A stretch of 51,340 bases of DNA from assembly GCA_041645025.1 (NCBI GenBank), contig JBAZQV010000002.1:1-51340 (forward strand). Direction: 5' to 3'. The notes below the pieces were generated by a model, which saw nothing but the letters and a program-made list of their open reading frames with translations, searched no databases and was not told the origin of the DNA. How positions within the stretch are numbered: the stretch's first letter is position 1; every line of letters begins with the position of its first letter. Below are positions 16,144 to 47,700 of this stretch, in pieces. A program made the position numbers and the translations under genes. This DNA comes from Candidatus Aenigmatarchaeota archaeon (GTDB taxonomy: Archaea > Aenigmatarchaeota > Aenigmatarchaeia > GW2011-AR5).

Positions 16144-16342
16144 CTTTCAATATTCTGCTTGTTGGTTTCTTCCAGTCTTTGAGAGAGCCGAATACCTTAT
16201 TCATGTTAATCTTTGAAGGCTTTCTCAGTATTATCTCAACTTTTTGCCCATCCTTTAGATTCTCTTTTCTTATTATTTCGTTTGGTATTATCACACCAAA
16301 GGAGTTGCCCCACTTCTTTATCCTTCCCTCAAGCTCAGACAT
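16115..16342 (-). CDS. vapB: AbrB/MazE-fold antitoxin (VapB-like), 75 aa, start trimmed to the internal ATG
   Basis: MSELEGRIKKWGNSFGVIIPNEIIRKENLKDGQKVEIIL is a SpoVT/AbrB swapped-hairpin motif. The 48 codons upstream in the ORF track are low-complexity (FFYYFFVYLNYF) and lie in the divergent promoter region. Confidence 0.7.
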   Translation of the reverse strand: MSELEGRIKKWGNSFGVIIPNEIIRKENLKDGQKVEIILRKPSKINMNKVFGSLKDWKKPTSRILKVVDKELWND

Positions 16343-16393
16343 ATTATCACCAGTTATACAATGTATAACTAAGTATATAAAGTTGTTTGACAA

Positions 16394-18441: not shown

Positions 18442-18870
18442 ATGATAGTCCTTGACAGCTGGATTTTTATAGAATACTTCTCTGATATGGAGAACAAAAG
18501 CTCAGCCGATCTGGTGGAGAATCCTTCGGACACAAGAGCGATAAGCTCCGCTGTTCTGGCAGAAGTCAAGTACAGAATATCAAAAAAATTTGGCAACTCA
18601 AAAGCTTCGGACGCCATAGATGCGATAAACTCACTACCGAACTTGCGTATATTGCCGGTTACGAAAGAGATTGCGGAATTCGCGGCAGAGTTGAGACTAA
18701 AATATTATAGTAAAGAAAGACAGCTATCCTATATCGATGTGATTAATCTGGCAACTGCAATCAAGATTGGATGCGACAAATTCTATACTGGTGACCCAGA
18801 TTTTGAGGGGATAAGTGAGATTGAAATAAAGAATATACGACAGACGAAAACAAATTCCATATATAAATAA
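18442..18870 (+). CDS. vapC: PIN-domain toxin (VapC-like), 142 aa
   Basis: MIVLDSWIFIEYF and SYIDVINLATAIKIGCDKFYTGDPDFEGI. Confidence 0.75.
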   Translation: MIVLDSWIFIEYFSDMENKSSADLVENPSDTRAISSAVLAEVKYRISKKFGNSKASDAIDAINSLPNLRILPVTKEIAEFAAELRLKYYSKERQLSYIDVINLATAIKIGCDKFYTGDPDFEGISEIEIKNIRQTKTNSIYK

Positions 18871-18965: not shown

Positions 18966-19080
18966 TCTTAGATTCATTGAAAACGCACGGCTTCAGCCGT
19001 GCGATGAAACACAATGAATCTGGGATCCCATCTTCCAACAAACCCACGACTTTAGTCGTGGGATATAAGGAAGATGTGAT
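18966..19080 (+). repeat. Two-hairpin intergenic element R2, copy 1, containing an IS200-like CCCACGAC-TTTA-GTCGTGGG hairpin
   Basis: Stem AGATTCATTG (18970-18979) pairs with CAATGAATCT (19012-19021) and encloses a GCACGGC-TTCA-GCCGTGC hairpin. Then comes GGGATCC, then stem CATCTTCC (19029-19036) / GGAAGATG (19069-19076) enclosing 19043-19062. The framework is shared with 35391-35476. Confidence 0.6.
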
Positions 19081-19163
19081 AAAACACACGAAAAAGAAAA
19101 AAGGACATAATTTCGAGAGACCCAAAATAATAAACTGAGTTAGAAAATTATGAGGGTGAAATC

Positions 19164-28261: not shown

Positions 28262-28473
28262 AGGAGATCTCTCAAATAAATGAACTTTAATATTACGAGA
28301 TCTCCTTTATAGCAAACTCAACAAAAGTTCAAATATCATTGAGATTTGCTATAAGCTTTTCAAAAAAATTAACCGAAACAGAAAATTTGTATATTGAGAA
28401 CTTTGATTAACCCCATAATTTGTCAAAGTTCACAACAAGGACTTTGAATGAAATATATATTATTCAAAGTCCT
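28262..28473. repeat. Array of four consecutive, mutually unrelated strong hairpins between rpl21e and rpoF
   Basis: A: 28262-28271/28297-28306 (10 bp). B: 28309-28319/28341-28352 (11 bp, one bulge). C: 28398-28406/28423-28431 (9 bp). D: 28438-28449/28462-28473 (12 bp). Loops are 12-25 nt and AT-rich. C plus D recur at 35576-35670. Confidence 0.7.
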
Positions 28474-28490
28474 CTATTGGAGATGGTATA

Positions 28491-28820: not shown

Positions 28821-28879
28821 GCCTCTTTCTTTTCAAAAAGAAAGACCCTTGGGAGAAAGAAAACTTATTATTTATTTGG
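28818..28879 (+). terminator. Repeated post-stop-codon hairpin element T, copy 1
   Basis: TAAGCCTCTTTCTTT-loop-AAGAAAGACCCTTGGGAGAAAGAAA..TTATTATTTATTTGG. Nearly the same ~60 nt follows the aspS remnant at 36738-36798. Lies between convergent genes. Confidence 0.5.
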
Positions 28880-28895
28880 CTCGCTGTCAAAAAAC

Positions 28896-29216
28896 TTATA
28901 TTTTAATTTTCGGCCTCAGTTCAACTTCCTCAAAAGAGCCTTTCAGGAGGATTTCTTCGAGTTTTATCAGTGACTTTGCTCTTCCGTTATCTGTGTTCAG
29001 CGAATACAACTGGACCCGTCCTATTTTCCTTGTAGGCTTGATTATCTTATTTTTTATTAATTCGGGAAATATCTTGTACAAAGTCGGTCTTGATATTTTG
29101 CAGTTGTCAGCAATGTCTTTTTTTGTGTAGTCTATGCCCACTCCTTCGATAAGGAAATCCAGTATTCTGTTCTCTATAGAGTCTCCGATTACTTCCAGCA
29201 GCATCGATTTTTCCAT
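28896..29216 (-). CDS. Winged-helix transcriptional regulator, 106 aa, start trimmed
   Basis: ENRILDFLIEGVGIDYTKKDIADNCKISRPTLYKIFPELIKNKIIKPTRKIGRVQLYSLN. AAGGTGGA lies just upstream of the ATG at 29216. Confidence 0.7.
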   Translation of the reverse strand: MEKSMLLEVIGDSIENRILDFLIEGVGIDYTKKDIADNCKISRPTLYKIFPELIKNKIIKPTRKIGRVQLYSLNTDNGRAKSLIKLEEILLKGSFEEVELRPKIKI

Positions 29217-29288
29217 ATGTCCACCTTTTCCAGCTATATACATACGTACAATTATTAAGTATTTAAAACTTTACATGCATGTAAACTT

Positions 29289-29570
29289 ATGGATAATGAC
29301 TTGATACGCGCAAAGTTACTGTTTTCATTGGCGCGCCATAGAAAGTGGGGCGAATGTCACACTGCTTATGAAAATATGATGAGGCAATTTCGTTCCCAAA
29401 ATTTAGGAAAAGAGGGAATGAAAATTGCAACAAAAATTGGAGAAGAACTTATGCGCGAAGGGTTTATAATTAAGAAGCCGACAAATTATGGCCTGCAAGT
29501 TTCTCTTAATCCAAGAAAACCCCAGGAAATAAAGGAACTGATAAAAAAGAATATAGGGTTTGATATTTGA
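29289..29570 (+). CDS. Hypothetical small protein (93 aa), possibly wHTH-like
   Basis: ORF shares a 4-nt ATGA overlap with the following PP2C-like gene. No clear motif. Confidence 0.4.
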   Translation: MDNDLIRAKLLFSLARHRKWGECHTAYENMMRQFRSQNLGKEGMKIATKIGEELMREGFIIKKPTNYGLQVSLNPRKPQEIKELIKKNIGFDI

Positions 29571-30370
29571 TGAAAGTCGATTTTGTTTTCGACGAAGGCT
29601 CTAGCAAGGAAGACACTTACCTGATAGGCCAAAATATATTCGGCGTTTTTGACGGTGCCAACAGCATAAACAAGTTCTTCGATGAAAACGGCAAGTCAGG
29701 CGGATTAATGGCAGCTTCAATTGTAAGAGACGAATTCGCAGCGAATAAAGGAACGCTGAAAGAAATGGCTATCAAAGCTAATAATATCCTTAGAAAGAAA
29801 ATGATCTCCAATAACATTGATGTATCAGACAAAGCCAGTCTTTGGTGCACTACGGCTGCTGCTGTGAGAATAAAAAACAAAACGTTTGAATGGCTCCATG
29901 TGGCGGATTCCCTGATTCTTGTCATATACATGGATGATTCGTTCAAGCTTTTGGCTCATGATTACGATCATGACAGGGGTGCTATGATTGTCTGGAAAAA
30001 ACTTGCCCAAGAAAAAAGGAAAAATATTCATGACATTATATGGAAGAAAACTCCTCATACCAGATTCAAATCGAACGAGGCATATGGCATGATTAACGGA
30101 GAAGAGAAATTTTCAAAATTTATCCTGACAGGCGAAGAGAATCTTGAGAACGTAAAGCACATACTAATTTTCACTGATGGCTTAATACTTCCAAAAGAAG
30201 ATCCGGAAAAGGAAGATAATTTCAATGCTTTTGTCAGGTTATTCCTCAAGGGCGGACTAAAGAACGTAATGCAATATGTAAGAGACTTGGAAAAAGACGA
30301 TCCTGAGTGCTGGAAATATCCGCGATATAAACAATATGACGATATAACAGCGATTTCTATTTCTTTTTAA
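29567..30370 (+). CDS. PP2C/SpoIIE-like protein phosphatase, 267 aa
   Basis: GVFDGANS (DGxxG-like metal motif) and ILIFTDGLILP (TDG motif). Confidence 0.55.
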   Translation: MMKVDFVFDEGSSKEDTYLIGQNIFGVFDGANSINKFFDENGKSGGLMAASIVRDEFAANKGTLKEMAIKANNILRKKMISNNIDVSDKASLWCTTAAAVRIKNKTFEWLHVADSLILVIYMDDSFKLLAHDYDHDRGAMIVWKKLAQEKRKNIHDIIWKKTPHTRFKSNEAYGMINGEEKFSKFILTGEENLENVKHILIFTDGLILPKEDPEKEDNFNAFVRLFLKGGLKNVMQYVRDLEKDDPECWKYPRYKQYDDITAISISF

Positions 30371-31586
30371 CCTTCACTTTTACATTATGTATTGCAAGGA
30401 CATCAAGTTCTTTGCAAATACATGCCTGACCCAGAATGCTGCTCACAGAAGGCGTTGTCCGTCCGTTGTCGCCGCTTATTAGTTCCTTTACATACAGCCC
30501 TGCTTCGCATTTTACCACTATAGAAAATTTCTTTTTGTTTATGAACGCTGCCTTGAGCGTCTTTATTTTTCTATGACGAAATTTGTCGGCGCGGCGGTGA
30601 AGAACACGCTCAGGCGTTTTCTGTTTTATGCTGCCGACAAGCTGATTGAGTTTTTTCAAATCATTTCTTGATATATTTTCACATATAACTGTTGCCTTGT
30701 AAGTTTTGTCCGCACGCTCCTCCTTTATACGCCGGACCTCGGCTATGTTTGACACACGCAGGTTTCTTATTTTGATTCCTTTGGCTACTTTTTTTGTCAG
30801 TGCCTTAAGATTCATTTTTCTTTTTTGCGACTCCAGTATCTCCAATACAAAAGGCCGCCAGCCGAGGCAGCGCGCATCAATGTCTTCACGGCCTAATCCG
30901 TGAAGCTTGCTAGACTTGCCTTTTGTAGCAATCAGGAATGGTTTTGCCATTATTTCTTCTATGGAGGTCTTGTATTTTTTTGAAGGCCAGCGCGTCTGAG
31001 GAATTCCACGAATAAGTTTCTGGTATTCACCGTAAAAGAAAAGCGGATTCAGCTGGATGTCGGGTTTTCCTTCTGGCATGTCAATTATAAAATTCACATC
31101 AGGATTCTGATTAAATTTTGCACCGGTCTTTTTTTCAACAAGCTTGCCAATTTCCCTGTTCAATTCTGCCTTTATTGGCTCGCAATAATCGATTCCCACA
31201 TTTTCCCATAAGTTTTCCTCACGTGAAATCATGTCAAAGGACAGTTTGGTTCCGATTAAAAATGTTGAGAATTCATATTTCTTTGCAGCTTTCGCGACTT
31301 TGACGGATATTTTTTCCAGGCTATCAAAAATTCCTTCACACACAGAGCATTTTTTCTTTTCAATATTTTTTGCGTCGAGTTTGTGGAAATTGAAACCGTG
31401 AAAATTCGAGAGGTCGAGGTCGCCGAAATAATCCTCCTGGTCGATGCTCATGGCTACTAGCGTGCGCAGCAGACGGCCACGCTGTACGTTTGTGTATCCG
31501 CTTAGAAGCTGGGCGAACTGGCGGCCCAGACATGAGTCACAAACAGGCTGTCTCAGTATTCGGTGCGCTTTTTCCTGTATTTGCAT
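30357..31586 (-). CDS. pus10: tRNA pseudouridine(54/55) synthase Pus10
   Basis: N-terminal Zn motif VCDSCLGRQFA..CSVCEG, THUMP-like middle, and catalytic block HGLGREDIDARCLGWRPFVLEI. Confidence 0.85.
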   Translation of the reverse strand: MQIQEKAHRILRQPVCDSCLGRQFAQLLSGYTNVQRGRLLRTLVAMSIDQEDYFGDLDLSNFHGFNFHKLDAKNIEKKKCSVCEGIFDSLEKISVKVAKAAKKYEFSTFLIGTKLSFDMISREENLWENVGIDYCEPIKAELNREIGKLVEKKTGAKFNQNPDVNFIIDMPEGKPDIQLNPLFFYGEYQKLIRGIPQTRWPSKKYKTSIEEIMAKPFLIATKGKSSKLHGLGREDIDARCLGWRPFVLEILESQKRKMNLKALTKKVAKGIKIRNLRVSNIAEVRRIKEERADKTYKATVICENISRNDLKKLNQLVGSIKQKTPERVLHRRADKFRHRKIKTLKAAFINKKKFSIVVKCEAGLYVKELISGDNGRTTPSVSSILGQACICKELDVLAIHNVKVKVKKK

Positions 31587-34031: not shown

Positions 34032-35342
34032 GTGAGACTCATCAAGGCAAAAGAAACTGAAGAAAGATTTTACACAACAGACGCTGTGAAGATGGCTGGA
34101 AAGCGTGTAACTGTTTTTGGCTGGGTCCGCAAAACAAGGGACCTGGGAAGCCTGATGTTTATTGTTCTCTACGACCGGAAGGGCGAGCTCCAGGTAACAT
34201 TGAAAAAAGGCGACAAGAATTTTGAGATGGCTGGGAAAATATCCAGAGAGAGCGTCCTTAGGGTTACGGGCACTGTCACAAAAAATGAAAAGGCGCCAGG
34301 CGGAATCGAGCTTAATCCGGATGAAATAGAAGTCATTGCCAGAGCAGAGTCGCCTCTTCCTTTGGAGACAGATCCGAAAATAAAATCCGAACTGGATACT
34401 CGGATAGACAACAGATTCATTGATCTTCGCAAGAAGGAGAATGCTGCTATCTTTGTGATAAAAGACGTAATTTACAGGAGCTTCATTGAATATCTTGAGA
34501 AAGAAGGTTTCACGCTGATGCACACACCGTGCATCATTGCTGCAGCGACTGAGGGCGGTACCAATCTTTTCCCGCTTTCTTACTTTGACAAGGAAGCTTT
34601 CCTGGTGCAGAGCCCGCAGCTCTACAAGCAGATGTTGATGGCTTCTACCTTTGACAAAGTAATGATAATCACTCCGGCATTCCGCGCTGAAGAACACAAT
34701 ACAATCCGCCACCTTAATGAGTGCATTCAGATGGACATAGAGACGGCTTTCGTGAAGGACGAGGAGGGCGCGCTGAAATATGCCGAGGGTGTTATAAATT
34801 ATATTTACAGACAGGTTACTGAAAAATGCAAAGAGGAGCTGAAAGCGCTTAACAGAGAGCTGGAAGTGCCCAAACTTCCTTTCAAACGAATGACTTATGA
34901 TGATGCACTCAAGTTTCTGAAGAAGGAAGGAATTAACATAGAATGGGGCAATGACTTCACGCCAGAAGCAGAGAAGATGATAGGCAAGCATTTCAATCCT
35001 GTTATAGTAACAAAATGGCCGACAGACATACGCGCTTTCTACTCAATGCCGGAGCCGGGCAACGAAAAAATCTGCCGCGGTTATGACATGCTCATAGACG
35101 GCACGGAAGCCATGTCAGGCGCGCAGCGGGTTCATGATTACAAGCAGCTGGTTGACATATTGAAAAAGCGCGGCATGAACCCAGACAATTTCAAGTTCTA
35201 CACAGACGCGTTTAGATACGGCATACCACCCCACGCGGGCTGGAGCTTCGGTCTTGAGCGGCTGACCATGTTCATCTGCGGACTCAAGAACATCCGCGAA
35301 GCAACTTTGTGGCCTAGAGACAGAACAAGGCTGACACCATAG
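34032..35342 (+). CDS. aspS: Aspartyl-tRNA synthetase, archaeal/eukaryotic type (GTG start)
   Basis: OB anticodon-binding N terminus. Class II motifs FRAEEHNTIRHLNE and GIPPHAGWSFGLERL. 436 aa. Confidence 0.9.
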   Translation: MRLIKAKETEERFYTTDAVKMAGKRVTVFGWVRKTRDLGSLMFIVLYDRKGELQVTLKKGDKNFEMAGKISRESVLRVTGTVTKNEKAPGGIELNPDEIEVIARAESPLPLETDPKIKSELDTRIDNRFIDLRKKENAAIFVIKDVIYRSFIEYLEKEGFTLMHTPCIIAAATEGGTNLFPLSYFDKEAFLVQSPQLYKQMLMASTFDKVMIITPAFRAEEHNTIRHLNECIQMDIETAFVKDEEGALKYAEGVINYIYRQVTEKCKEELKALNRELEVPKLPFKRMTYDDALKFLKKEGINIEWGNDFTPEAEKMIGKHFNPVIVTKWPTDIRAFYSMPEPGNEKICRGYDMLIDGTEAMSGAQRVHDYKQLVDILKKRGMNPDNFKFYTDAFRYGIPPHAGWSFGLERLTMFICGLKNIREATLWPRDRTRLTP

Positions 35343-35353
35343 GCATCTTTTTT

Positions 35354-35375
35354 AGAAAGTAGCTTGTAGTCAAAG
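35354..35375 (+). repeat. Short repeat R3, copy 1 (AGAAAGTAGCTTGTAGTCAAAG), at the left edge of cassette A
   Basis: The same 22-23 nt, with one substitution, recurs at 36881-36903 at the left edge of cassette B. Confidence 0.55.
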
Positions 35376-35390
35376 AAATGTATTATTTAT

Positions 35391-35476
35391 CTAAAGATTC
35401 ATTGTTCTATAAACAATGAATCTTGGATCCCATCCTTCTTTGCGGAAAAGTCGGTGGTATACAAAGAAGATGTGAT
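35391..35476 (+). repeat. Two-hairpin element R2, copy 2
   Basis: AGATTCATTG (35395-35404) pairs with CAATGAATCT (35414-35423). Then TGGATCC, then CATCCTTCTTTG...CAAAGAAGATGTGAT. The framework matches 18966-19080 but the hairpin interiors differ. Confidence 0.6.
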
Positions 35477-35575
35477 TTTGGTTCACTTGCGCTCACAAAG
35501 TGGCTTGTTTATGATTGTTACAAAATTACATAAAATATGTTCAAATGTACATAACTTTAAGTACTTATGTTACAA

Positions 35576-35670
35576 AATTACATATTGAGAACTTTGATTA
35601 ACCCTATAATTTGTCAAAGTTCACAATAAGGACTTTGAATGAAATGTATACTTATTCAAAGTCCTCTATT
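35576..35670 (+). repeat. Repeat R1, copy 2 (hairpins C and D of the rpoF-upstream array)
   Basis: About 95 nt, roughly nine-tenths identical by eye to 28384-28478. In both places it ends ~12-18 nt before a gene start. Confidence 0.7.
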
Positions 35671-35688
35671 GACTGTTCAGGTATATGT

Positions 35689-36081
35689 ATGAGGATAGAG
35701 GAACACAGGAAGGCTTTGGAAGAGCATGAAAGGAATATCAGGAGATGTATAGATGATGGAATGGAGAAAAATCAAAGAAATATTGGATATAATATATCTC
35801 AGGCAAGCATAGAGATGCTATCAATATACTTGTTGAAACTTAAACTTGTGCAGGTTTCTATAAATTTTGACCACAGGATTTTCAAGCATTCAAAGTCCAT
35901 ACGAGAAAAACTGGTTTTTGATTTTCCCAGAAAGACAGAAATAATGGATCTTATGAGAAAAATTGAGGAAAAAAGAAATATTCTATGCTATGGCAAAAGG
36001 AAGTCCGAAAAAGAAATTGTCGAAATGCTGGCGTTTTATAATAACCTTAAGGAAATTGTTGGTGAGTTACATGAAGAATGA
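35689..36081 (+). CDS. Helical protein (130 aa), possible HEPN-like partner of the downstream nucleotidyltransferase
   Basis: Start trimmed to the ATG beyond repeat R1. All-helical composition. Overlaps the NTase gene by 11 nt. Only a weak Rx3H (DHRIFKH), so the HEPN call is tentative. Confidence 0.4.
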   Translation: MRIEEHRKALEEHERNIRRCIDDGMEKNQRNIGYNISQASIEMLSIYLLKLKLVQVSINFDHRIFKHSKSIREKLVFDFPRKTEIMDLMRKIEEKRNILCYGKRKSEKEIVEMLAFYNNLKEIVGELHEE

Positions 36082-36667
36082 TAGAATAGCTTATGCTGCT
36101 GCATTCTGCTCTTTTTTGATTGAAAGAGCTGAAAATATAAGATCTGTTATATTGTTTGGCTCCGTAAGTCGCAAAGATGCAGACAGGGAGAGTGACATAG
36201 ACATTTTCATAGACACAATGTCAGAGAGCACCAGAATAAACAAGATACTGAATGAGTTCTACAAATCTAAAATAAATGAGCTCTGGAAACTCAAAGGAAT
36301 AAAAAATCCTATATCATTGATTGTTGGCAACATAGAAAATAAAGAATGGACTGATCTAAAAAGAAGCATAATAACTGATGGAATAATTTTATTTGGCAAA
36401 TATAAATCAGAACCCGAAAAATTAAGGCATTATACGCTCTTTTCTTACAGAAACATAAAAGATGCAAAAAAGAGGGTGAACCTCCATAGAAAGCTGTTCG
36501 GTTATAATATCAGTGATAAACATTATACTGGTATTGTATCAAAATCAAACGGCATAAGACATGGCAGTGGCAGTTTTTCAGTCCCTATAGAGAATTACAA
36601 AGAAGTTCGTGAGATATTCAGGAAGATGAAAATAACACCAGAAATAATAGAGATATGGATAGGATAA
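36071..36667 (+). CDS. Minimal nucleotidyltransferase (MNT/Pol-beta superfamily) protein, 198 aa
   Basis: ILFGSVSRKDADRESDIDIFID (GS..D.D motif). Start set to MKNDRIAY. Confidence 0.7.
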   Translation: MKNDRIAYAAAFCSFLIERAENIRSVILFGSVSRKDADRESDIDIFIDTMSESTRINKILNEFYKSKINELWKLKGIKNPISLIVGNIENKEWTDLKRSIITDGIILFGKYKSEPEKLRHYTLFSYRNIKDAKKRVNLHRKLFGYNISDKHYTGIVSKSNGIRHGSGSFSVPIENYKEVREIFRKMKITPEIIEIWIG

Positions 36668-36683
36668 TCCCATTTATTTCCTA

Positions 36684-36740
36684 AAGAACATCCGCGAAGC
36701 GACGCTGTGGCCTAGAGACAGAACAAGACTTACACCATAA
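36684..36740 (+). pseudogene. Detached duplicate of the last 18 codons plus stop of aspS
   Basis: Matches 35286-35342 at 51 of 57 nt. Encodes the identical peptide KNIREATLWPRDRTRLTP*. The five sense-codon differences are all synonymous, and the stop is TAA versus TAG. Confidence 0.85.
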
Positions 36741-36798
36741 GCCTCTTTCTTTGGTAAAGAAAGACCCTTGGGAGAAAGAAACATATTATTTATTTTGG
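36738..36798 (+). terminator. Repeated post-stop hairpin element T, copy 2
   Basis: TAAGCCTCTTTCTTT-GGT-AAAGAAAGACCCTTGGGAGAAAGAAA..ATTATTTATTTTGG. Compare 28818-28879. Confidence 0.5.
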
Positions 36799-36818
36799 TT
36801 TACTGCCGTTCACTATAT

Positions 36819-36863
36819 TCACTTGCTGAACTCGCCGATCTCTGGTTTTATGATTTCTGCCAT
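36819..36863 (-). pseudogene. Detached duplicate of the last 14 codons plus stop of the ybaK-like gene
   Basis: Matches 38186-38230 at 39 of 45 nt. Encodes MAEIIKPEIGEFSK* versus MAEIIKPEIDEFSK*: four synonymous changes, one D/G change, and stop TGA versus TAA. Confidence 0.8.
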
Positions 36864-36880
36864 AAGCTCCTTTCTTCGCA

Positions 36881-36903
36881 AGAAAGTAGCTTGCAGTCAA
36901 AAG
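36881..36903 (+). repeat. Short repeat R3, copy 2
   Basis: AGAAAGTAGCTTGCAGTCAAAAG, preceded by the CCTTTCTT-CGC-AAGAAAG hairpin. Confidence 0.55.
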
Positions 36904-36985
36904 AACAAAAGTAACTTGTTTACGAAAAACAAAGCCATCTTCAGACAACAGCCCTTTTTATATCAAAATAACACATAGATTACTT

Positions 36986-38167
36986 ATGCCTAAAAGCAAC
37001 ATACCTTCTACAAAGTCATTTTTATTTATTATAGGAATGTTTTTTGTTATCGGAGGGCTTTTCAACTTCATGCAGAGTCCTGTTTTAATTACAGGGATGG
37101 CGTCAGATGACTGCATCCCGACCTTTACAACATGCAACGACGACAATGTTTACCAGCATTATGAAAACTGCGATGGCGAAAACATAGAGTACTGCCAGAA
37201 TGGTTGCAGCGGCGGCGCGTGTGCCTCTTGGTATAACACGACACCCACACCGTTGCCAAATCAAACCGTTCCGTTACCTAACCAGACAAAACCACTACCA
37301 AATCAAACTAATCCGGAATGCATTCCTACTGCTACAACATGCAACGGCAATTATGTTTACCAGCACTATGAAAACTGCGGTGGACAAAATATACAATATT
37401 GTCCATATGGATGCAGCGGTGGTGCATGTGTCTCTTTTTATAACACGACACCTAAAAATACGACTAACGGTACCACACCAGAGACGTTTATACCAACTTC
37501 AGCATGTATTGATAGTGATGGCGGAAAAAATTACTTCCAGAAAGGCACTTTGGTCGCCTATACGAGTGATGCACCCTTTCCTATTATGAAAGTAGACTAC
37601 TGCATAAATTCTAATAAATTAAGGGAAATGTATTGTGATAATTCTGTTAAAAATTTTGGTTCGCTTCCTAAGGAAGAAAGTTACGTGTGCCCGAATGAAT
37701 GCCAAAACGGGGCTTGTGTTGTCAATAGTACAAACTCAACACCTTCATGCATTCCGACATATACGTCGTGCAACGGCAATTATGTTTACCAGCACTATGA
37801 AAACTGCGGCGGTCAAAATAAAAAGTATTGCCCATATGGATGTGATGATGGATTGTGCGTCTCTTCTAATGGAACAGCCCCGCCCTCTAATCAAACTGCT
37901 CCTCCAACCCCAAACTCATGCCAGAATAGCTGCGGTGCAAAATCAGGCAATTGTTGGTGCGATTCAATATGTGTAATGTACGGTGATTGCTGCTCTGACT
38001 ATGACCAAGAGTGTGGCGGAACAGGTCTTGCGTCTTCACCGAGCTCTTCAAGTACCAATTCAGGCTCGTGTCAGAATATGTGCGGCGTAAATTCAGGCAG
38101 CTGCTGGTGCGATGTATTGTGTAAAAAATATGGCGACTGCTGTCCTGATTATGCTGAAAAATGCTAG
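36986..38167 (+). CDS. Secreted or anchored cysteine-rich protein (393 aa): three YQHYENCGG-type Cys modules, a PLPNQT microrepeat and two C-terminal somatomedin-B-like domains
   Basis: N-terminal helix FLFIIGMFFVIGGLF. Three copies of CIPTxT[TS]CN..[NY]VYQHYENC[DG]G[EQ]N..YC..GC..G.C. Two copies of C-x3-C-x6-C-x-C-x3-C-x5-CC-x6-C. Confidence 0.8.
   Translation: MPKSNIPSTKSFLFIIGMFFVIGGLFNFMQSPVLITGMASDDCIPTFTTCNDDNVYQHYENCDGENIEYCQNGCSGGACASWYNTTPTPLPNQTVPLPNQTKPLPNQTNPECIPTATTCNGNYVYQHYENCGGQNIQYCPYGCSGGACVSFYNTTPKNTTNGTTPETFIPTSACIDSDGGKNYFQKGTLVAYTSDAPFPIMKVDYCINSNKLREMYCDNSVKNFGSLPKEESYVCPNECQNGACVVNSTNSTPSCIPTYTSCNGNYVYQHYENCGGQNKKYCPYGCDDGLCVSSNGTAPPSNQTAPPTPNSCQNSCGAKSGNCWCDSICVMYGDCCSDYDQECGGTGLASSPSSSSTNSGSCQNMCGVNSGSCWCDVLCKKYGDCCPDYAEKC
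37919..38164 (+). other. Two somatomedin-B-like 8-Cys domains (37919-38014 and 38069-38164)
   Basis: CQNSCGAKSGNCWCDSICVMYGDCCSDYDQEC and CQNMCGVNSGSCWCDVLCKKYGDCCPDYAEKC. The Cys spacing and the GDCC.DY core match the SMB pattern, except for a shorter second loop. Confidence 0.6.
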
Positions 38168-38185
38168 ATACAAACAGAATATTTT

Positions 38186-38644
38186 TTATTTGCTAAATTC
38201 GTCGATTTCTGGTTTTATGATTTCTGCCATGTCCCGCGAGCTCATGTTTATCGAAATCTCATGAAGCCCGGCGTTGAAGTTCACTGTCTGGTTATCGAGA
38301 ATATGACGGTCCATGAAAACCTGCAGGCCGAACAAATTGCCGAAGGGATGGACACTTCCCACCTCGCAGCCGGTCATGCGAAAAACGTCTTCGGCGCTGG
38401 CAAGTTTTGCTTTTCCTATTTTTTGTCGAAGACGGTCAAAATCTATTTTTTTGTCACCGGGCACCAAAATCAGAAAGAAGCCTTTTTCGGATTTCACGAC
38501 CATTGCCTTTACGCCGCTGCTCAAAGGCACGCCGCGTATGCGCGCAGCTTGCTCTGAAGTATAGACGCGCTCGTGAGTGAGAACTTTATATTCTATATCG
38601 TGTTTGTCAAGCAGATTTTTCAATGATTCGACTTCTGATTCCAT
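38186..38644 (-). CDS. YbaK/ProX-type aminoacyl-tRNA trans-editing (deacylase) domain protein, 152 aa
   Basis: ..TSEQAARIRGVPLSSGVKAMVVKSEKGFFLILVPGDKKIDFDRLRQKIG..LASAEDVFRMTGCEVGSVHPFG fits the YbaK/ProRS-editing pattern. Confidence 0.75.
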   Translation of the reverse strand: MESEVESLKNLLDKHDIEYKVLTHERVYTSEQAARIRGVPLSSGVKAMVVKSEKGFFLILVPGDKKIDFDRLRQKIGKAKLASAEDVFRMTGCEVGSVHPFGNLFGLQVFMDRHILDNQTVNFNAGLHEISINMSSRDMAEIIKPEIDEFSK

Positions 38645-38773
38645 AAATAATTATAGTAAAAAAGAGATTAAAATACAAACTAAGCCCAAATAAATACTTG
38701 CTTTCCAATTATGGTCGTTTTTTGTCCCTAATTATCTTTTTATTCGGGAAAATCCAATAAAATCCTAGTGCAT

Positions 38774-41700
38774 ATGAAAGCGCAAACAGCTTTAGGTATA
38801 TTTATCGCATTTGGCGTAGTATTATTAATAGGATTGTCTTTTTTTACAACCAAGGCTTATGCAGAGCCATGCAATTGCTTTGATAACACTGACTGCGCTG
38901 TTGGTGAAACGTGCGATCCTGATAACACCATGTGCACGGTAACTGATGGCAATGTAGGCATGTGTGTTGCTGGCGGTGGATTTACTTGTACCCCTGCCTG
39001 CACTTCTCCACAAGTATGCCAGAGCGGTACATGCGTTACTCCTCCTACTACACCACCCGGCACTGATACAGGCGTAGCAATAGGAGTTGGCGACGTGACA
39101 TCGTGTTCAGGCACAACAGGCTGCGCTGGCGCAACGTGTCGCTGGAGCAAATGCGCGACAACTGCTAACCCCACAAAGATAGAGTTCACATTTACCATAC
39201 CTAACACGTGCAATGGAAATTCAATATGGTCAGGTGGAAGATGGGTTCCTGCTAATCCGTGCAGCACAAATGCTGTTTCATTTCCTGCCAGCGTGAAAGC
39301 TGCTTATGCCAACAACTGCCTGCACAGCATTCTTCTCACAGAAGTTCAGTCCGATGATTATGGAAAAGTGTGCGCTGGTCCAGGGTGCAGCGCCAGCAGC
39401 GCTCCAGCCGCCGGCATTATTCCAGGTCCGGGTGGCGGCGGCGGTGGTGGCGGAGGCAATAGTTTTGTTTCTGGCACACCCATACTGCTTGTTGATGGCA
39501 GTTCCAAGCCAATTGAAGAAATAAAGATTGGAGACAAAGTCCGTTCATTTGACCCGGAGACCGGCACTTTCTCTATTGGTAATGTCACGTCTATTCTTAC
39601 ACGAGATGTTCAGGAAAGTTATATTCTTGACTTTGATGACGGTTCAAGTGTAGGAGTTACTGGGACACACCCGTTTTATGTCAAGACAGCCGCTTCCGGA
39701 GTTCCTACTATACACAAATATTTTGTGCAGGTCAAGGACCTGATGGCTGGCGACCGGGTCTACAAGGCATATGACAACCGGGCTGTTTCTGTCAAGATTA
39801 CTGTTATTCGGCAGATATCAAAGCCAGTTACTGTTTATAATTTCAACGTTGAGCCGTTTCATACATATATTGCCAACAACATGGTGGTCCATAATATCAA
39901 ATCAGAGAGAGGTCCCTTCGCAAATGTCGTGGCAAAGCCGACGTTTAGCGTGACAGGATTTGCGACAGCCAGCGGCGGTGTTATCTATACAGCAGCAAGC
40001 AATGCAGTCTGGGCACCAAACGTTGACGCGACTAACGCGTTTGACAAAACAGACCCAAAAGTAAGCCTTTATGTTGTTGATACGATAGCCGCAAACTACG
40101 GCGGAAATTCAAGAACCATAGGCGCGACGTTTAAGGTAATAATTCTCAATCCATCTCCAACACAGAAATGCGTTATGGATACGGCAACGGGAAAACCAAA
40201 AATAGTACCTTTGTGTGCTGGCACGACAGCAGAATGTACTCAGACACCTACGGAAATACCAACACTTACTGCCCCGCGGTGCATTGATTTGACAAGTCAG
40301 AACGGATGGCAGGCTACAGGTCCTGCTGTCTCAAAATGTGTTGACAGCAATCAGTACAAGGCTATGGTTACACCACAGGCGTACAAGGTCTCTACGTGCA
40401 CAAAATATGTACCAGACCTGACATTTTCAAAATATGGTAATTATACAACTAATGCAACCGCTCCTGGTACTCCGCCCCGCGGTGGTTCTGCTACGAGAGA
40501 TAACTGGACAACAAGAACGTCCTGTGGCACCCTTGGCTGCAATCCTGCTACTGGATTGTGCAAGACAGGCGGTGGAGGTGGATGCCCTGATGGGCAGACA
40601 AAGTGCAGCGACGGTGTTTGCAGGACTGACTGTGGCGGCACTTGCATAAAGCCCCCTTTGCTTAATTCAATAAATGCAACTCCGCGGCGAGTGGCGCCTA
40701 CAGGTATTGTAACAATGTCAAGTATTGGTTCCAGTTCTGAATCCATAACAGATGCAGGCAGCACTACTCCAAGGCGAATGAAAGTGAAGCTGGAGTGCGG
40801 CACAGCTGAAGGTAATATTCAAACTACTAGCCCTCCACCAGGCGGCGACGATACCGCGTGCAGGACCAGAACTAACCCGGCATCAATACTTGCTTCTGTA
40901 CGGGCTGCGCGTGCTGCGTACGGCGCAATGGTTAGTGCTGAAGAAGCAGCGGTTCTCTTAAACAAGGCAGCATGGGACAACAAAGACGCTGGTTGGGGAT
41001 TGCTAAGCAAGACAGGTGGAAATAGTTGTCCGCATTCGTCTGGTTCTATTTCATGTGATATTCTTTTCCATAAACCTTCTGGCTTGATATATGATGTTCT
41101 TGGCAGCGGGCCTGGGCCAGAAGGTCCTGGTCCAAGCAATCCGCAATGGGGATGTACTGGCAGAGCTGAAACAAGTAAGTGGGTTGCACCTACCACGCCT
41201 ACAGGCGGAGGCACTGCTGTTTGTGCTGGCAAAACTCCAGGCTGGTATGATCCTACAATGTGGGGTGGCTGCCCACTTTCAGAATGCCGACAGAATAGTG
41301 CAACATGCTCTAGCTGTGGAGAAGCTCTTGCATATTGCGATGGCACCAACTGGAAGACAGATTGGGACCCTTTTGTTACTGAAAGTCAAAAGGCCACAGC
41401 AACATCAGGTCATACGTGCCCTTGCGCTACCGGTCTTACAGGCGGAGTTACATCGAAGCCTACGTTCAGCGTGACAGGCTTTGCAACCGGCGGTGCGTGC
41501 GAAACTTGCGCTGAAAAAGGGCAGACAGATAAATACCAAAGTGATGTAAAAAATGCCGCAAACAAATATCTTGCTTCTCATCCGGAAATTGGAGATTTGC
41601 CAAGTTATGGTGCTGCTGATGGGGGGAGTGATGAAGGTGAAGCTGCAGTAGCCCAACTTAGAGACGGAGTAATTGCTATTTTAATTGGTCAAGGCTTTCA

Positions 41701-44700
41701 TGCCGAAACAATAGGAAGCTATCCTCAAATAGTAGCTGTTTGGAAAGATGGTGATCCCGATAAAACAGGGTATAGAGTAACTGCAGGTGGAGGAAAAATA
41801 CATGACGCAATTCAAGCAGGTTATTGTGGCGGACATGAGACTTTTGGTGGCACTGATATTATCCCTAGTGGTTGTACATCTGCTCCTACTGCTGCAAGAG
41901 ATGGTACGAGTGGCTCATGCCAGACGGGCAGCTTCACAGCAAACCTTTGCAGCGGACAACTCGCTGACAACAACCCAACTTGTACATTGACGCTCCCGCC
42001 AGAATGGAAAAGGGGCGGCTTCTTCCAGAATCTTTACTGCCGCCTTAAGGATGAGTCCGGCATGTATTCAAACTCAAGCAGGACAAGCATAATAGTTGAC
42101 AACAACCCGCCGACGTCAAGAATAACCGAGCCGGTGGCGAACAGCGTCCAGACAGCCAACTTCCAGATTAAGGTCACGGACGCAGATGATTCTGGCCTGG
42201 ACAAATGTTATTATACAACATCTGGTAACACAGCTACGCCCATTGCTTTGCCGCGGGGAAACATTGCGCTTTCAAATCCTTACAGGGTATGGAGACCGCT
42301 TGACGTGGCTTATAGCACTAAGAGTGATGTGGCGCTGGCTGTGTGGAGCACTGAACATCAAGGTAAGGTCATCGGCCAGTTTATAACGGATGCCGGGGCG
42401 CTGCGAGGCGGTAATGTTATTCTTGGAAGTAGTAGTGATTTCGTTGGCTCAATAAAAATCACCTATGACGAGGATGATGATTTGTTCTTAGTTGCATGGG
42501 GTGCTGCTGCCGGCAACAATATGGGACCAACATATGGCAGCTTGGTAAAAGCAGATGGAACTTTTGTCAAGCAGAATTTTGTTATTATGAACAACTGTGA
42601 TTTAGGCATTCATGCTTCCTCCAGCGGAAATATAGCCTATAGCTCAGGCGCGAAAAAATTCTTTGTATCATGTACGCGTGGCGTCATAACCAGGGGCAGC
42701 ATTATAGGTAATTCAGTTACGCCAACCGGCACTGTTGGGAATGAAGTGGTGGTGACAGGTGATGGAATGTTTGGCTCTTCAGCTGCGGCAGGCGGGAGCA
42801 GTGTTCTTGCTACATGGTTTGATCAGAACGGCATTGCCTACGGCAGACTATACAATCCTAATGGCGCAGCTTTGACAGGTCCAATTAGAATTTCAACCGG
42901 AACGCTGGGAGGTTATGTTTCGCTTGTCGCGTTCTATGATACTACACGCAATGAGTATACCGCTTTCTACTGGGGGAGTGTTGGAAGAAAACTTTACAAA
43001 CGCACCATTGGACCAAGCGGTACTCTGGGAACCGAGTCTACTGTGTTCACCAACAACAATGTCGGGGTCAGTGACATTGCCTATAATCCTTTGACCGGCA
43101 GCTATTTTGTTGCTGACCAGCACCAGGATGATAACGGAAATGGTTATATTAAGATAAGCAGCGGTGGAGCTGCGTCAGGGTCAGTTAGAGTTTCTGAAGA
43201 CATGACGCTGCCACATTACACACCAGCTATAATAGCTACAGGGAATGACGTGCCGCTTACAATAATGAATCAGGCTGGTGATGCTTATGCGCAGTTCGGT
43301 GGGTTGGGAGGCGCAATTAGTGGCGGCAGACTCAGAATATGCAACAGCCAGACAACAATAACCGTTGGGCCTGGTAACGATTGTCCTGACCAGGGCTCTT
43401 GTACTGTAAGCGCTTTTGCGACCGACACTGTTGGCAACATTGGTGCACCGGATTCACGCAGCTTTACGATAAATTTGATTCTTACAAATATTACTTCCCC
43501 ACTAGACGGCAGCAACCAGACCGGTAACTTTTCCGTGAATGTTCAGGACAGGGACTTTGCTTCTACGACAAACAGCACAATTACATGCACCTATGATATC
43601 TACAGTGTTGGTTCAACATCTACAAAGATAGTTGACAATGCAGCGCGCAGGTGCAACAGCAACTTCACTGTGAGCATTGGACCTGATGGCGACTGCAATC
43701 TCATGGGACAGGGTTCATGCAAAGTTGTTGCAAAGGTCAACAAAACTATGAACGGCACCAGAATCGAAGATACCAGTACAAGATTCTATAACATTGACTG
43801 GGTTACACCTTTCTCAGAAATCGTCAGTGCACCTAGCAACTGGGTAACTTCGGACTTCACTATTTCTGTAAGTGATAACGCTCAGGGCGTTGCCAGCAGA
43901 ATATCAAAATGCCAGTACAAGGTGGTCAGCAATGCAACCCAAACCGTGTCATGGACTGACAGGGCATGTGGCATTGGCGCACCTGCCAGCGTAATGATAA
44001 CGGTCGGGCCAGGAAAGAACTGCAGGCACGAGGGCGGCGACGCGTGCACAATATTTGTCAGGCCTATAGGCATGTCAGGATTACCGGGCGTAGAAGATAA
44101 TGTTTCTGTTCCAATAATTTTTAATGTCACAGATACAAACGGCTTTTCGGTCACAACAACCACACAAACTGAAAGGGGCCTGAACTTCAGCGGCACTACA
44201 CGACAGGAGTTGAGATTATATACATTTTATGTCTGCAACAAAAACTCAAATGTTAACAGTTGCATAGCAGCATACAACAGCAACAACAGGGGCGCGAACA
44301 AGCCGAACTTCTGCGGCTCGCTTCTTGGTAAATGCGAGCTGAGGTGCAGCGACCAGACAGTTTTGTACTACTTTGCCGCGAGAGGCACACCGGTTGGCCA
44401 ATCCGCGACAGTTACTGTTGTCAGCACTATCACGAGCGCCGCATGCCCGACATTCAATATTGGCCAGATAAACGAATGGTATCAGATATTTACTGACCTC
44501 GATGTGCAAATTGGGACTGAGATAGGAATTGTTGATTCTTCCATAAGCCAGAACGGCGAGACGGCTATTGCCAACAACGAGACTCTTGTGATTCTAAGGG
44601 AAGCGCTGCTCATTACAAAAGACCATTTGAAAAATATGACGATGGAAATGCAGGACCTTACGGTTACAAAAGCGCGACAGCTGATTCAACGCTCGCTTGA

Positions 44701-47700
44701 AAAAAGAGACGACATTGACAGACTTCTAAGAGGAATAAGGCCTCCGACACGCGTATTGATGACTGTTGATATGCCGACTGTTGTGAGATTTAACCGCAGC
44801 ATGACCCTGACTGCTACAATAAACAAGGACGGCCCCACGGACGCGTACGGAACTGTCTACTGTACAATAACAAAGCCGGGTAATTTAGTCCAGCAGAACA
44901 GATCGTCATGCCTTGTGCTGGGTGGACCTGGTCATCACTCCACTGCTTATAGCGTTCCATTTATGCCTGACAGGCTTGGCACCTGGACTTACAGCTGCAA
45001 ACTGGGACGTTCGGTAAGACCTGACTGCTCCTTTGAGGTGAACCAGACGCCTGTTAGCGGCACGTTTGCTGTGTTGCCTGCTGCAAGCACTTTCATAGCT
45101 TCCTTATCAACTCCAGATAATGCGGTAAGAGGTAGTGTGGTGACTACAAACACTGTTGTGACAAATCCTGACAGCTCAGACAGGTTTGTTAATGTAACAT
45201 GTAATTTCAGATATATTTCCAACGGGCAGCTGATTACAAGAAGGAATTCATCAAGCTGCATTAGTGCTGCTACTGGTGATACAACAGTTCCCATTAAGAT
45301 GTACGCAAGCACTCTTGGCGAATGGAATGTAACCGGTTGCTCTGTGCGCTCATCTTCAACATCAAATTGTGCCAGCTCTGCTCTTGACAATACTTCTCTT
45401 GCTACTGCGAGTTACATGGTAATGCTGCCTGATTCGGTTTTCATAGAGTCTGTTGGCGTGCCTCAGGCACCTGTCCTGAATAACTCATTGCTAAGCATAC
45501 CGGTTATTATTAACAACCCCACACAAGACGTGGCTTATGTCACTTTGAACTGTGGAATAATAAAACCGGTTGGCTCAGTGACCGTCACGGACCAAAATGG
45601 CGTTGATTCTGGCAGGACCAGTTCGTTCACGCTTGATACCACGACTGACCGTGTTGGCAGGTGGAACATAAGTTCCTGCAATGTTTCTGTCTCTCCTGAC
45701 CCAAGTTTCTCAGGCAGCTCTGTTGTTTATACACGCAATAATGTGGGAACATTCAATGTTATCGCGCGCAGCAATCTTACAATAACAGCAGTGAATTCAC
45801 CAACTACGGTTCAAAATAATACGCTTACAAGCTTAAGCGTTTCTATTACAAACCCTTCCAATGCACGCTATGGCCGCGTTTCCTGTACTGTAAGAGATCC
45901 GGTTAATAGGGTTCATGTCAACAGTTCTGCATGTTTGATTGTGAACAGCAATGCGCAAAGAGTTTTTGCCATCAACTTCTTTATGAACAGGACTGGCGAA
46001 TGGCACATCACTCAATGCTCTGTTTACGGTTCAGCCAGCGCCGACTGTTCCTCGTATTCGCTACATGACAGAAAAGATTTTATTGATAACTCGTTTAATT
46101 CAACGGTTTCCTGCACTGCTGGCTTGTACCACGCTACGAACCCGGCAACAAGCGTGTGCCAGGAGTTTGGCAACAACTGTAACATACCTACCGGCTGGAT
46201 AAATATAACAGCAGGTTCGTGCCCGGGCGGCATGGGTGTTGTGTATGTATCATCAGTTTCAGTGCCGACCAGTGATGTGATAAATAATTCCAACGTGAAC
46301 ATAGACACACTGGTTACAAACCCTATAAATGATGACAGATTCGGCCAGGTCAGTTGCTTTGTCAAAAGCCCGAGCGGCGCAACGCAGCTGCTAACTTCAT
46401 CGTGCGAAGGCATAGCCGCCGCAAACGCACGAACATACAGGACGATTTTAACTGTTAATAAAGTAGGAGTATGGAACGTAACGACCTGCAGCGTAAACGC
46501 AAGCACGAGCTGCGCTTCGGCAACGTTACAACACATCCTTAACGCGAGCAAAACATTCAATGTAATACGTGGTGCAAACCTTTCCTTTGTGTCGTTCTCG
46601 CTGCCGCCGGACACGCTGGTAAATAATACTGCGACCACTGCTATAAACATAAGGAACCCTTCAGATGCAGCGAGATACGCACGCGTCTTCTGTAGCTTCA
46701 GGAACTCCCAGAACCAGATGACATCAAACACAACATCGTGCCTGCAGGTAGCAGGAACATCCACACCGACATTTGGAGTAAACATATTTGCGAACGTTGC
46801 CGGAACATGGAACGTTGATTCTTGCACATTGCGCGGTTCTCTTGACTCAAGCTGCTCGGAACTTCACGATTCTGAATCAGGTATAGGTGCGTTCAACATA
46901 ACTACGGTATCACCGCCGCCGGCTCTTGCAGAACTTTTCATAAGCAACCTAAGTGCCAGTTCGGCAGCTTTCAATGACAGCCGCATAAGCGTGCTGGTAT
47001 ACGGAAGAAACAATAACCTGGCCAACAGCAGTTATGCTATTGTTGGTTGTGAGTTCCTCAACCCGCTTGGTGGCTTGACCAGACAAGCGTCTTCATGCAC
47101 GCAGGTAACTGCAAACAGCACTGTGCGATTTGGAGTTTCGCAACTGCTTAACATACCTGGAACATGGACTGTTGCCAACTGCTTCATAAACGCGTCAAAC
47201 ACTAACAACTGTGCGCCTTCAATACTTAACAATGTTTCCGCAGAAACAAGAACGATAACAGTTTCGCTTCCTCCTAATCTTTACATCACAGGCGTCACCG
47301 CGCCGAGCGCTGATGTTGTAAATAACACGAACGTAAATATAGATGTCTTTGTCAACAACCCTCTCAATGACGACAAGTACGGACTCGTCAACTGCATAAT
47401 ACAAGATCCCAATGGAAATAATTATACCAGGGCCGCAGCCTGCTCCTCGGTGCCAAGACAGACCAGCAACAAGAAATACAATGTTTCTGTGGTTGCCAAC
47501 ATTGTCGGTTCATGGAACGTGAGAAATTGTTCTGTTAGTTCCTCCACCAGCTCGAGCTGCGCAAGTTCCTCTCCTGCCGGGGAACTTATAAACGGTGATA
47601 CATTCAATGTGATACGTGGCTACAACCTCACCTTATCATCCTTATCAGTACCACAGTCTGTTTATGTAAACCAGCCTTTGCGCGTGGCATACACGCTGAG

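Follow-up and report, generated by a model that had tools for sequence, protein, structure and literature searches.

We analysed a 51,340-nt stretch of contig JBAZQV010000002.1 from a Candidatus Aenigmatarchaeota archaeon (the whole stretch is called the window, and all coordinates are window positions), with attention to the interval between the convergent genes aspS, encoding an archaeal-type aspartyl-tRNA synthetase (AspRS), and ybaK, encoding an aminoacyl-tRNA editing protein. A 2.9-kb stretch at this place is best read as three versions of one aspS/ybaK intergenic locus, arranged head to tail, in which each working gene end is accompanied by a displaced copy. The best explanation, to which we assign a probability of roughly 0.6, is additive, homology-anchored illegitimate recombination between diverged alleles (3'-end displacement) at a hot spot of toxin-antitoxin (TA) modules.

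TA and small accessory modules are very mobile, usually without mobility genes, and the route of their movement is rarely visible. Here the route would be readable: such modules would arrive as part of a relative's copy of the same locus, which is added and not exchanged. What is new is a displaced-end event in an unusual host and at the ends of housekeeping genes; the kind of event is already known, and no new kind of mobile element is revealed.

Layout of the aspS/ybaK interval

Segment alpha is best read as aspS with its working 3' end (A1), a spacer copy (spI(a)), an inserted two-hairpin element (hp2) and a core with a HEPN-like gene and a nucleotidyltransferase (NTase) gene. Segment beta would be a cargo-free junction, truncated on both sides, which contains a displaced aspS end (A2, 57 nt), another spacer (spII, 78 nt) and a displaced ybaK end (Y2, 45 nt), and segment gamma would comprise a second spacer copy (spI(b)), a gene for a Cys-rich protein, and ybaK with its working end (Y1). 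Only two non-homologous joins are required, alpha/beta at 36668-36684 and beta/gamma at 36863/36864, with at most a few bases of microhomology possible at them. A preliminary description of this DNA had proposed two separate insertions, in agreement with the two joins needed to build the structure.

Table 1. Positions of the features at the aspS/ybaK interval and of a related spacer in the window
Feature	Position	Strand	Remarks
aspS, archaeal-type AspRS, 436 aa, intact	34032..35342	+	Pfam tRNA-synt_2 and anticodon OB fold; 91-94% identical to AspRS of sister Aenigmatarchaeota
A1, working aspS 3' end	35286..35342	+	pairs with A2; repeat spans 35283-35353
spI(a), copy of the native aspS/ybaK spacer	35343..35390	+	degenerate CTTTYTT/ARAAAG hairpin, R3, TATTATTTAT tail; 30/38 aligned positions match the 42-nt spacer of L175
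hp2, inserted two-hairpin element	35388..35476	+	fold z-scores -3.3 and -4.9 on the two strands
Cargo A core	35509..36667	+	leader, HEPN-like gene 35689-36081, NTase gene 36071-36667 (11-nt overlap)
MITE-like insertion in cargo A leader, 78 nt	35589..35666	+	14-nt imperfect terminal inverted repeats (AGRACTTTGAWTAA); two internal hairpins; TATTG on both sides
Join alpha/beta, 16 nt of no assigned origin, NTase stop codon to A2	36668..36683	+	aspS homology starts at about 36681-36684
A2, displaced aspS 3' end	36684..36740	+	18 aa and stop
spII, 78-nt spacer of beta	36741..36818	+	full-length paralogue of the spacer downstream of rpb4
Y2, displaced ybaK 3' end	36819..36863	-	14 codons and stop
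spI(b), second copy of the native spacer (hairpin and R3)	36864..36905	+	32/39 aligned positions match the empty-site spacer of L175
Cargo B, leader and gene (36986-38167) for a Cys-rich membrane-anchored or secreted protein	36906..38185	+	two stretches match Pfam Somatomedin_B (E = 2.7e-9)
ybaK-like aminoacyl-tRNA editing gene, intact, including Y1	38186..38644	-	Pfam tRNA_edit, E = 6.6e-27; 88-89% identity with the sister lineages
Spacer between rpb4 and the convergent orf115, spII family	28821..28895	+	

Displaced gene ends as alleles of different lineages

A1 and A2 differ at 6 of 57 nt, and all six differences are synonymous, so that both copies encode the same 18 aa (KNIREATLWPRDRTRLTP) and a stop codon. 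The aspS repeat is actually 71 nt long (35283-35353 and 36681-36751) and extends beyond the stop codon into the spacer. The two ends of ybaK, Y1 (38186-38230) and Y2, differ at 6 of 45 nt with one D/G change; Y1 encodes MAEIIKPEIDEFSK and stops at TAA, and Y2 encodes MAEIIKPEIGEFSK and stops at TGA. Internally repetitive genes aside, the long repeats of the window are limited to the A pair, the Y pair and two elements in common with the rpb4 locus.

The synonymous bias was evaluated by a random-substitution test, which gave P = 2.5e-4 for the A pair and P = 1.8e-3 for the Y pair. Over five pairs of remnant and working copy, P ranges from 2.5e-4 to 0.03, with 5e-5 for the L186 pair described below, and the reading frame and stop codon are preserved in every pair (5 of 5). 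The remnants are 10.5% (A) and 13% (Y) diverged from the working copies, similar to the ~13-15% found at aspS/ybaK between the four sister lineages compared, namely the window, UBA10154 (L003), Hainich H43 (L083) and DATDUC (L173-L177), which are mutually ~84-90% (mostly 85-87%) identical in these two genes. Moreover, the copies resemble different extant alleles: A1 is nearest to the UBA10154 allele (4 of 57 differences), A2 has GCGACGCTG and AAGACT in common with the H43 lineage, and the peptide end of Y2, PEIGEFSK, is that of the functional ybaK in the L173 lineage. Because the divergence is at the level found between lineages, nearly all changes are synonymous and A1 and A2 match different extant alleles, A1/A2 and Y1/Y2 diverged inside functional genes of different lineages. 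The remnants are now scars without a function of their own.

The locus in related lineages

The preliminary description had taken the remnants as marks of an ancestral junction of convergent aspS and ybaK, and proposed a search of related genomes for the empty site. Such a site is found in five assemblies (L173-L177; ybaK 88% identical), in which the aspS stop codon is followed by 42 nt and the ybaK stop codon, with no module on either side of ybaK. The convergent pair is a conserved arrangement in relatives, with 42 nt between the two genes in L173-L177 and 410 nt in L008, and the ancestral junction is thereby supported.

Other lineages contain other genes at this position. In H43 an NTase/HEPN pair is present that is unrelated and oppositely oriented, with another pair on the far side of ybaK, and UBA10154 has hicB/hicA between aspS and ybaK. 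In the more distant L182, L183-L185 and L186, homologues of the HEPN-like/NTase pair (74-80% aa identity) lie downstream of aspS with various extra genes, and in L181 the module lies downstream of MetRS. Judging from these differing contents, the aspS/ybaK interval is therefore an old, variable hot spot rich in TA-type modules.

Displaced gene ends recur among these relatives. In the UBA10154 lineage (L003, L163-L170, L172; at least 9 assemblies), aspS is followed by hicBA, a 45-nt ybaK remnant, a 156-nt spacer and ybaK. This remnant encodes MAKIIKPDINEYSK and a stop codon, the intact gene ends with MAEIIKPEIGDYSK and a stop codon, and the DNA between the two is a spII-type spacer that contains no gene. 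In L186, aspS, orf60 and a PIN gene are followed by a 39-nt aspS remnant (LWPRDRTRLAP and stop) with 8 synonymous differences (P = 5e-5), and in L182 the intact aspS end stands in direct tandem with a 30-nt remnant that comes from a foreign aspS allele. Together with A2, the aspS remnants (57, 39 and 30 nt) start at three different codons, and no motif is common to the joins; the alpha/beta join itself has no conserved motif in common with those of L186 and L182. Because the lengths differ without a common motif, there is no fixed attachment (att) core. Across lineages, divergence between the repeat copies amounts to 10-23%, and no identical run exceeds 22 nt. No further displaced gene ends turned up in the rest of the window or in the ~100 kb of related loci covered.

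Two minor observations concern the same genes. An apparently truncated ybaK in L005 is merely a run of N. In L183 (1011-2300), RNase HII, EMC6 and YbaK are 68-80% identical to those of the window, but identity drops to just 39% for the AspRS-type gene in the corresponding position, which suggests that aspS was replaced in situ by a distant homologue.

Spacers of the inserted DNA

The 42-nt spacer of the empty site in L173-L177 (GCCCCTTTCTTAAAAAGAAAGTGTCTTGCGGTCAAAGAAATA) consists of a short hairpin, CTTTCTT/AAGAAAG, followed by the repeat R3, which occurs exactly twice in the window (35354 and 36881; shuffles predict 0.00). Copies of this spacer stand at the start of both inserts. The copy in gamma is preceded by Y2 as ...GCCAT/AAGC, which reads like the end of aspS (CCATAAGC), and the same kind of join is present in L003. 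Because both inserts carry this locus-specific spacer (30/38 and 32/39 aligned positions), the gamma copy behind an aspS-like end, the inserted DNA comes from homologous loci. R3 does begin both inserts, as first described, but as native spacer of the empty site and not as the end of a cassette.

The spacer of segment beta is of another, related type. It matches the spacer at window 28821-28895 at 62/73 positions and the rpb4/Pus10 spacer of L173 at 65/77 positions, and blocks of it are 100% identical in the UBA10154 lineage, beside ybaK. More generally, a family of post-stop spacers with the pattern TAAGCYYCTTTCTT-loop-AAGAAAG-..CTTG.GG..AAAGAAA..TATTATTT starts at the stop codon of aspS, rpb4 and a T2SSF-like gene, with members at window 28821-28895, L173 7245-7326, L171 1745-1832 and L003 5425-5578. 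The UBA10154 members carry extra small hairpin inserts, which are also present elsewhere on L171. Contig L171 (1660-2751) encodes exactly the UBA10154-type YbaK, but a frameshifted-looking T2SSF/FlaJ-like gene downstream replaces aspS-hicBA, and the breakpoint falls within the hairpin of the spacer; the two readings are a structural variant and rearrangement between copies of the spacer.

Origin of the structure

The segment structure, the allelic origin of the copies, the origin of the inserts in homologous loci and the recurrence of displacement are seen directly in the above comparisons. To account for them, a resident beta-type chromosome would twice have taken up DNA of the homologous locus from related Aenigmatarchaeota. 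Homologous recombination in the conserved flanking gene would have anchored each incoming piece, alpha in aspS and gamma in ybaK, and its other end would have been joined illegitimately, with no more than a few bases of microhomology, shortly inside the 3' end of the resident gene. In this way the incoming copy would complete the gene, and the resident 3' end would be pushed inward as a dead remnant. Additive outcomes may persist with both essential genes intact and the resident TA-like module not deleted. What we infer is the crossover at the anchor, the order in which the two events fell, and the reason why selection would keep additive outcomes.

Events of this kind leave a displaced 3' end beyond the added DNA with alleles of different lineages, and locus-specific sequence flanking the added DNA; both are found here, the second as the empty-site spacer at the start of both inserts. 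The positions of the joins vary on the aspS side and are identical (CCAT) on the ybaK side in two lineages. Because the sister lineages are ~13-15% diverged, recombination between species-level lineages of uncultivated DPANN archaea is indicated. An intact gene end with a nearby detached copy diverged at silent sites only would also be a marker countable in metagenomes.

Several points weigh against homology-anchored addition. The inner boundary of the ybaK remnant (...TGCCAT/AAGC...) is the same in the window and in UBA10154, with alleles differing at 14/45 nt; if illegitimate joins fall at random, this would take either a favoured CCAT microhomology, with an aspS end that reads CCATAA, or an old join common to both lineages, the remnant of which has since been overwritten. 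Haplotypes with alpha alone, beta alone or gamma alone were not found among the relatives, only the spI-type empty site and related arrangements. A sliding-window identity analysis of aspS and ybaK beside the inserts revealed no clear donor tract, the sister lineages being about equally distant. Homologous recombination across ~13% divergence is inefficient in well-studied bacteria. Finally, the recombinase scan described below is limited to ORFs (open reading frames) of the window.

A close variant of this model, and otherwise hard to separate from it, is integration of the Campbell type, in which fragments of a relative's locus circularise (for example, CCAT at the aspS stop codon with CCAT at ybaK codon Met139) and enter by a single crossover in the homology of the gene ends. 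Gamma has indeed the permuted order of a circle, Y(45 nt)-AA-spacer-cargo, and direct repeats flank each insert. However, the crossover would have to fall within 39-57 nt carrying 6-8 mismatches, a very short target for homologous recombination; no identical run is longer than 22 nt in the window, all of them stay below 10 nt in L186, and the UBA10154 circle would be ~200 nt and gene-free. Because the shared segments are so short and mismatched, this variant is less likely than homology-anchored addition, and we consider it unlikely.

Integrative elements that target the 3' end of a gene carry their own copy of that end and leave the displaced host end as a direct repeat. The preliminary description had suggested, as one possibility, a cassette system mobilised in trans; on this reading, discrete cassettes would be bounded by R3 and have att sites in the gene ends. 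Small cassettes with a gene-end attP would then be moved by a recombinase encoded elsewhere or by a host Xer-like enzyme, and the displaced end would be attR or attL. The duplication of a gene end with the gene restored is the classic signature of this process. In two lineages the ybaK remnant has its end point at an identical nucleotide and adjoins similar sequence (stop codon and hairpin spacer TAAGCYYCTTTCTT), the spacer family starts right after the stop codon of three genes (aspS, rpb4 and the T2SSF-like gene), the GC content of the cargo is atypical, and the HEPN-like/NTase core is also found downstream of MetRS in another genome. On the other side, Pfam scans for a tyrosine or serine recombinase were negative in both inserts, as initially noted, and in the plausible ORFs chosen from the 51-kb window. 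The boundaries of the aspS remnants differ and include no common core or inverted repeats, the repeat copies are diverged to the extent given above, and the copy linked to MetRS has no gene-end duplicate. The inserts hold the locus's own spacer, which a free element has no reason to carry, and the insert of UBA10154 is a 156-nt spacer without a gene. These findings lend no support to R3-bounded cassettes, and we regard a site-specific system in trans as unlikely.

A related idea, that the post-stop hairpin spacer (TAAGCYYCTTTCTT-loop-AAGAAAG...) and the borrowed gene ends form a recombination site for a host or trans-acting enzyme, is likewise doubtful. If it were true, TA-type modules of these DPANN archaea would home to conserved gene ends (aspS, ybaK, possibly metS and rpb4) as recombinase-less cassettes, and the identical GCCAT/TAAGC join in two lineages would be the footprint of a site-specific enzyme. 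Decay of larger elements, which had been considered as well, is not supported either, the compact limits of the HEPN-like/NTase module being the same in five lineages. The window contains no tRNA genes, Rfam gave no match over the whole window (gathering thresholds) or over 35200-38800 (E <= 5), and viral contigs contained no exact match to the aspS-end, ybaK-end or spII core. For the NTase there was no phage match, and plasmids gave a single weak one that is partial (51% of the query at 35.6% identity). A promoter and terminator scan with a bacterial-type model was uninformative for an archaeal host.

Tandem duplication of the junction in one genome, followed by drift and later gene insertions, would account for the direct tandem of remnant and intact end in L182. 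However, dead copies are expected to change randomly, and here the changes are almost all synonymous, with frame and stop codon kept in all five pairs; in addition, A1 and A2 match alleles of different extant lineages, and the copies are linked to different spacer types (spI and spII). We reject duplication in place with drift, because dead fragments would not stay synonymous, and consider its chance to be slight.

The preliminary description had named assembly chimerism at the repeat borders as a possible refutation, but the structure is identical in independent assemblies. Logan contig L179 (run SRR8449827) shows 0 mismatches to window 35621-37369, an interval that takes in A2, Y2, the spacer between them, the NTase gene, R3 and the beginning of the Cys-rich gene. 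Logan contig L002 agrees with window 37780-46494 apart from 1 mismatch. On an ENA contig of the same population the entire structure is present, with 5 single-nucleotide polymorphisms (SNPs) over 13 kb. Four of these SNPs cluster in 28 nt of aspS (34622-34649), which looks like a short gene-conversion tract, and the fifth is at 40839. Strain variation is thus real, as this cluster separates two assemblies; a chimera of co-occurring strains is nevertheless very unlikely, and the least probable of all readings, because the joins have only ~4-6 nt in common, well under any assembly k-mer, while three assemblies from different software are identical base for base across the joins and an analogous join of the UBA10154 type is present in at least 9 assemblies from several projects.

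Comparison with known systems

The same logic of displacement has been proposed for type VI secretion (T6SS) arrays, with a displaced effector 3' end and retained immunity genes, and for rearrangement hotspot (Rhs) loci, with strings of orphaned 3' regions (PMC5361080, Kirchberger et al. 2017, which cites Jackson 2009 and Poole 2011). As in the model above, DNA that enters T6SS arrays or Rhs and contact-dependent inhibition (CDI) loci has its anchor in a conserved region upstream and contributes a new 3' end with linked genes, the old 3' end and its linked genes are moved downstream as orphans, and no integrase takes part. Homology-facilitated illegitimate recombination (HFIR) is the proposed route, and retention is favoured since loss of a resident protective gene is harmful. 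In contrast to Rhs/CDI and T6SS loci, the ends displaced here are those of housekeeping genes (aspS and ybaK), synonymous alleles of equivalent function where the others are tips of polymorphic toxins. Displacement acts on a convergent gene pair from either side, the organism is a DPANN archaeon, and the cargo comprises TA-like modules and a surface protein.

The sources named for HFIR are reportedly de Vries & Wackernagel 2002, Prudhomme et al. 2002 and Meier & Wackernagel 2003. As defined in PMC3240628, HFIR resembles our case in one homologous anchor and one join with little or no homology, in additive outcomes and in end points that vary by event. However, HFIR was proven experimentally in few bacteria, mostly by transformation, whereas here it would be read from scars; the reported outcomes are additive insertions and insertion-deletions, while here a join inside the recipient gene gives a short duplication.

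Integrative elements at gene 3' ends (tRNA, tmRNA and protein-gene att sites; Campbell model) are alike in the direct repeat flanking the insert, the intact rebuilt gene and the empty site in relatives. They differ in that no integrase is found here among the window ORFs scanned and no constant, near-identical core is present, the repeats are allelic and 10-23% diverged, and the insert carries the locus's own spacer. Integron cassettes are also small, promoter-poor or single-operon stacked units, often with TA modules, but our locus has neither IntI nor attI/attC sites, and its hairpin spacers are native post-stop sequences of several genes, not cassette ends.

HEPN/MNT TA systems (type VII, HepT/MntA-like) provide the closest comparison for the cargo of alpha. 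In both cases a gene for a Pol-beta-type NTase overlaps a small gene for a four-helix HEPN fold, and the pair is AT-rich with a patchy distribution. Here, in contrast, the HEPN-like gene comes first, the NTase has 198 aa, R-N-x3-Y-G stands in place of R-x4-6-H, and no HEPN match exists at the sequence level.

Cargo genes and inserted elements

Judged by its sequence, the working cargo is a putative HEPN-like/MNT-like two-gene module and a predicted Cys-rich surface protein. The nucleotidyltransferase gene recognised in the first insert matches Pfam Polbeta (E = 1.7e-10) and NTP_transf_2 (E = 9.8e-9) and encodes a Pol-beta-type protein. Homologues of the cargo A core are present in L181, L182, L183 and L186 at 74-80% aa identity. 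The GC content of both cargo A genes is 33%, compared with 46-47% in aspS and ybaK.

The initial assignment of the other protein (130 aa) as HEPN-like holds at the level of fold and not at that of a sequence family: searches of Pfam, PDB sequences and PADLOC gave no classification, but an AlphaFold2 (AF2) model with a pLDDT of 91 has HEPN proteins as its best PDB matches, namely 1wol (TM 0.64/0.67), 2q00, 1o3u and 1ufb, with best-match TM scores of 0.64-0.67. The family has an invariant motif R96-x4-Y101-G102 (R-N-x3-Y-G), where HEPN proteins have R-x4-6-H, and D61-H62-R63 is nearly invariant. MntA-type NTases AMPylate a tyrosine of the HEPN partner, and by analogy the R96...Y101-G102 pattern may be relevant to function.

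The leader of cargo A had been described as a mosaic of elements found elsewhere in the window. Shared elements do occur in it, but they resolve into the module's own conserved leader, a MITE-like (miniature inverted-repeat transposable element) insertion and hp2. In the leader, TGTTACAAAATTACATA is repeated at 35516-35532 and 35568-35584, and two copies of GTTACAAAATTACATA are the conserved leader of the HEPN-like/NTase module in five lineages. A second copy of the MITE-like element, again with TATTG on both sides, is located at 28397-28474, just upstream of rpb4. Over 90 nt around the element, 35582-35671 has 95.6% identity to 28391-28479. The leaders of the module in L181, L182, L183 and L186 lack the insertion.

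When hp2 is taken out, the spacer tail reads TATTATTTAT/ATTTTGGTT again, like that of segment beta. The ybaK stop region seemed to form a direct repeat of 13-14 nt flanking cargo A (35385-35398 and 36674-36686), but this was dropped as a candidate, the left copy being better explained as spacer tail interrupted by hp2. Relatives of this two-hairpin element exist at window 18968-19086 (fold z -9.7) and upstream of the same module in L183 (~3220-3620), where the copy has ~300 nt of nested hairpins. The element consists of the stem AGATTCATTG/CAATGAATCT, GGGATCC, and a second stem which varies in sequence between copies yet still pairs; it has no Rfam match and adjoins TA-type genes at all three places (3/3). 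The inner hairpin, CCCACGACTTTAGTCGTGGG, is similar to the end hairpins of an IS200-like element in the window (8489-9240; GCCCACTTTAGTGGGC on the left and CCAGCCACTTTAGTGGCTGG on the right). The gene for a Y1-type (HUH) transposase of this element (8689-9150), a solitary one, is the only mobility enzyme found in the window.

The two somatomedin-B-like domains of the 393-aa protein encoded by cargo B are in line with the somatomedin-B-like Cys-rich protein recognised at first; the protein also has three repeated Cys modules and is hydrophobic in an N-terminal segment. The GC content of the gene is 42.8% (GC3, at third codon positions, 39.6%). No full-length homologue was detected in the related loci by tblastn, where the only match was a weak one on the L178/L182 contig (32% over 124 aa).

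Other features in the window

Other TA-type genes include a MazE-like/PIN pair (15754-16486) immediately upstream of lysS and in its orientation, and another PIN gene (18442-18870) that is followed by a two-hairpin element. Neighbouring genes (Pus10, Rpb4, L21e and the archaeal AspRS), together with the closest public loci, assign the window to the Aenigmatarchaeota, which belong to the DPANN. The surroundings of Pus10 vary between sister lineages (window 28896-31586, L173 4906-7326, L163 9497-12459): a helix-turn-helix gene, orf93 and a PP2C-like gene between rpb4 and Pus10 exist only in the window, and UBA10154 has a HAD hydrolase and small ORFs there. This is a second variable interval, beside a spacer of the spII family.

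Three genes for giant surface-type proteins are located at 38768-49084, 129-7625 and 21318-27227, encoding 3438, 2498 and 1969 aa, respectively. Relatives have NTase/HEPN pairs between ybaK and the giant gene at 38768-49084, where the window has only 123 nt. The 3438-aa protein contains a Hint/intein-like segment and Cys-rich modules.

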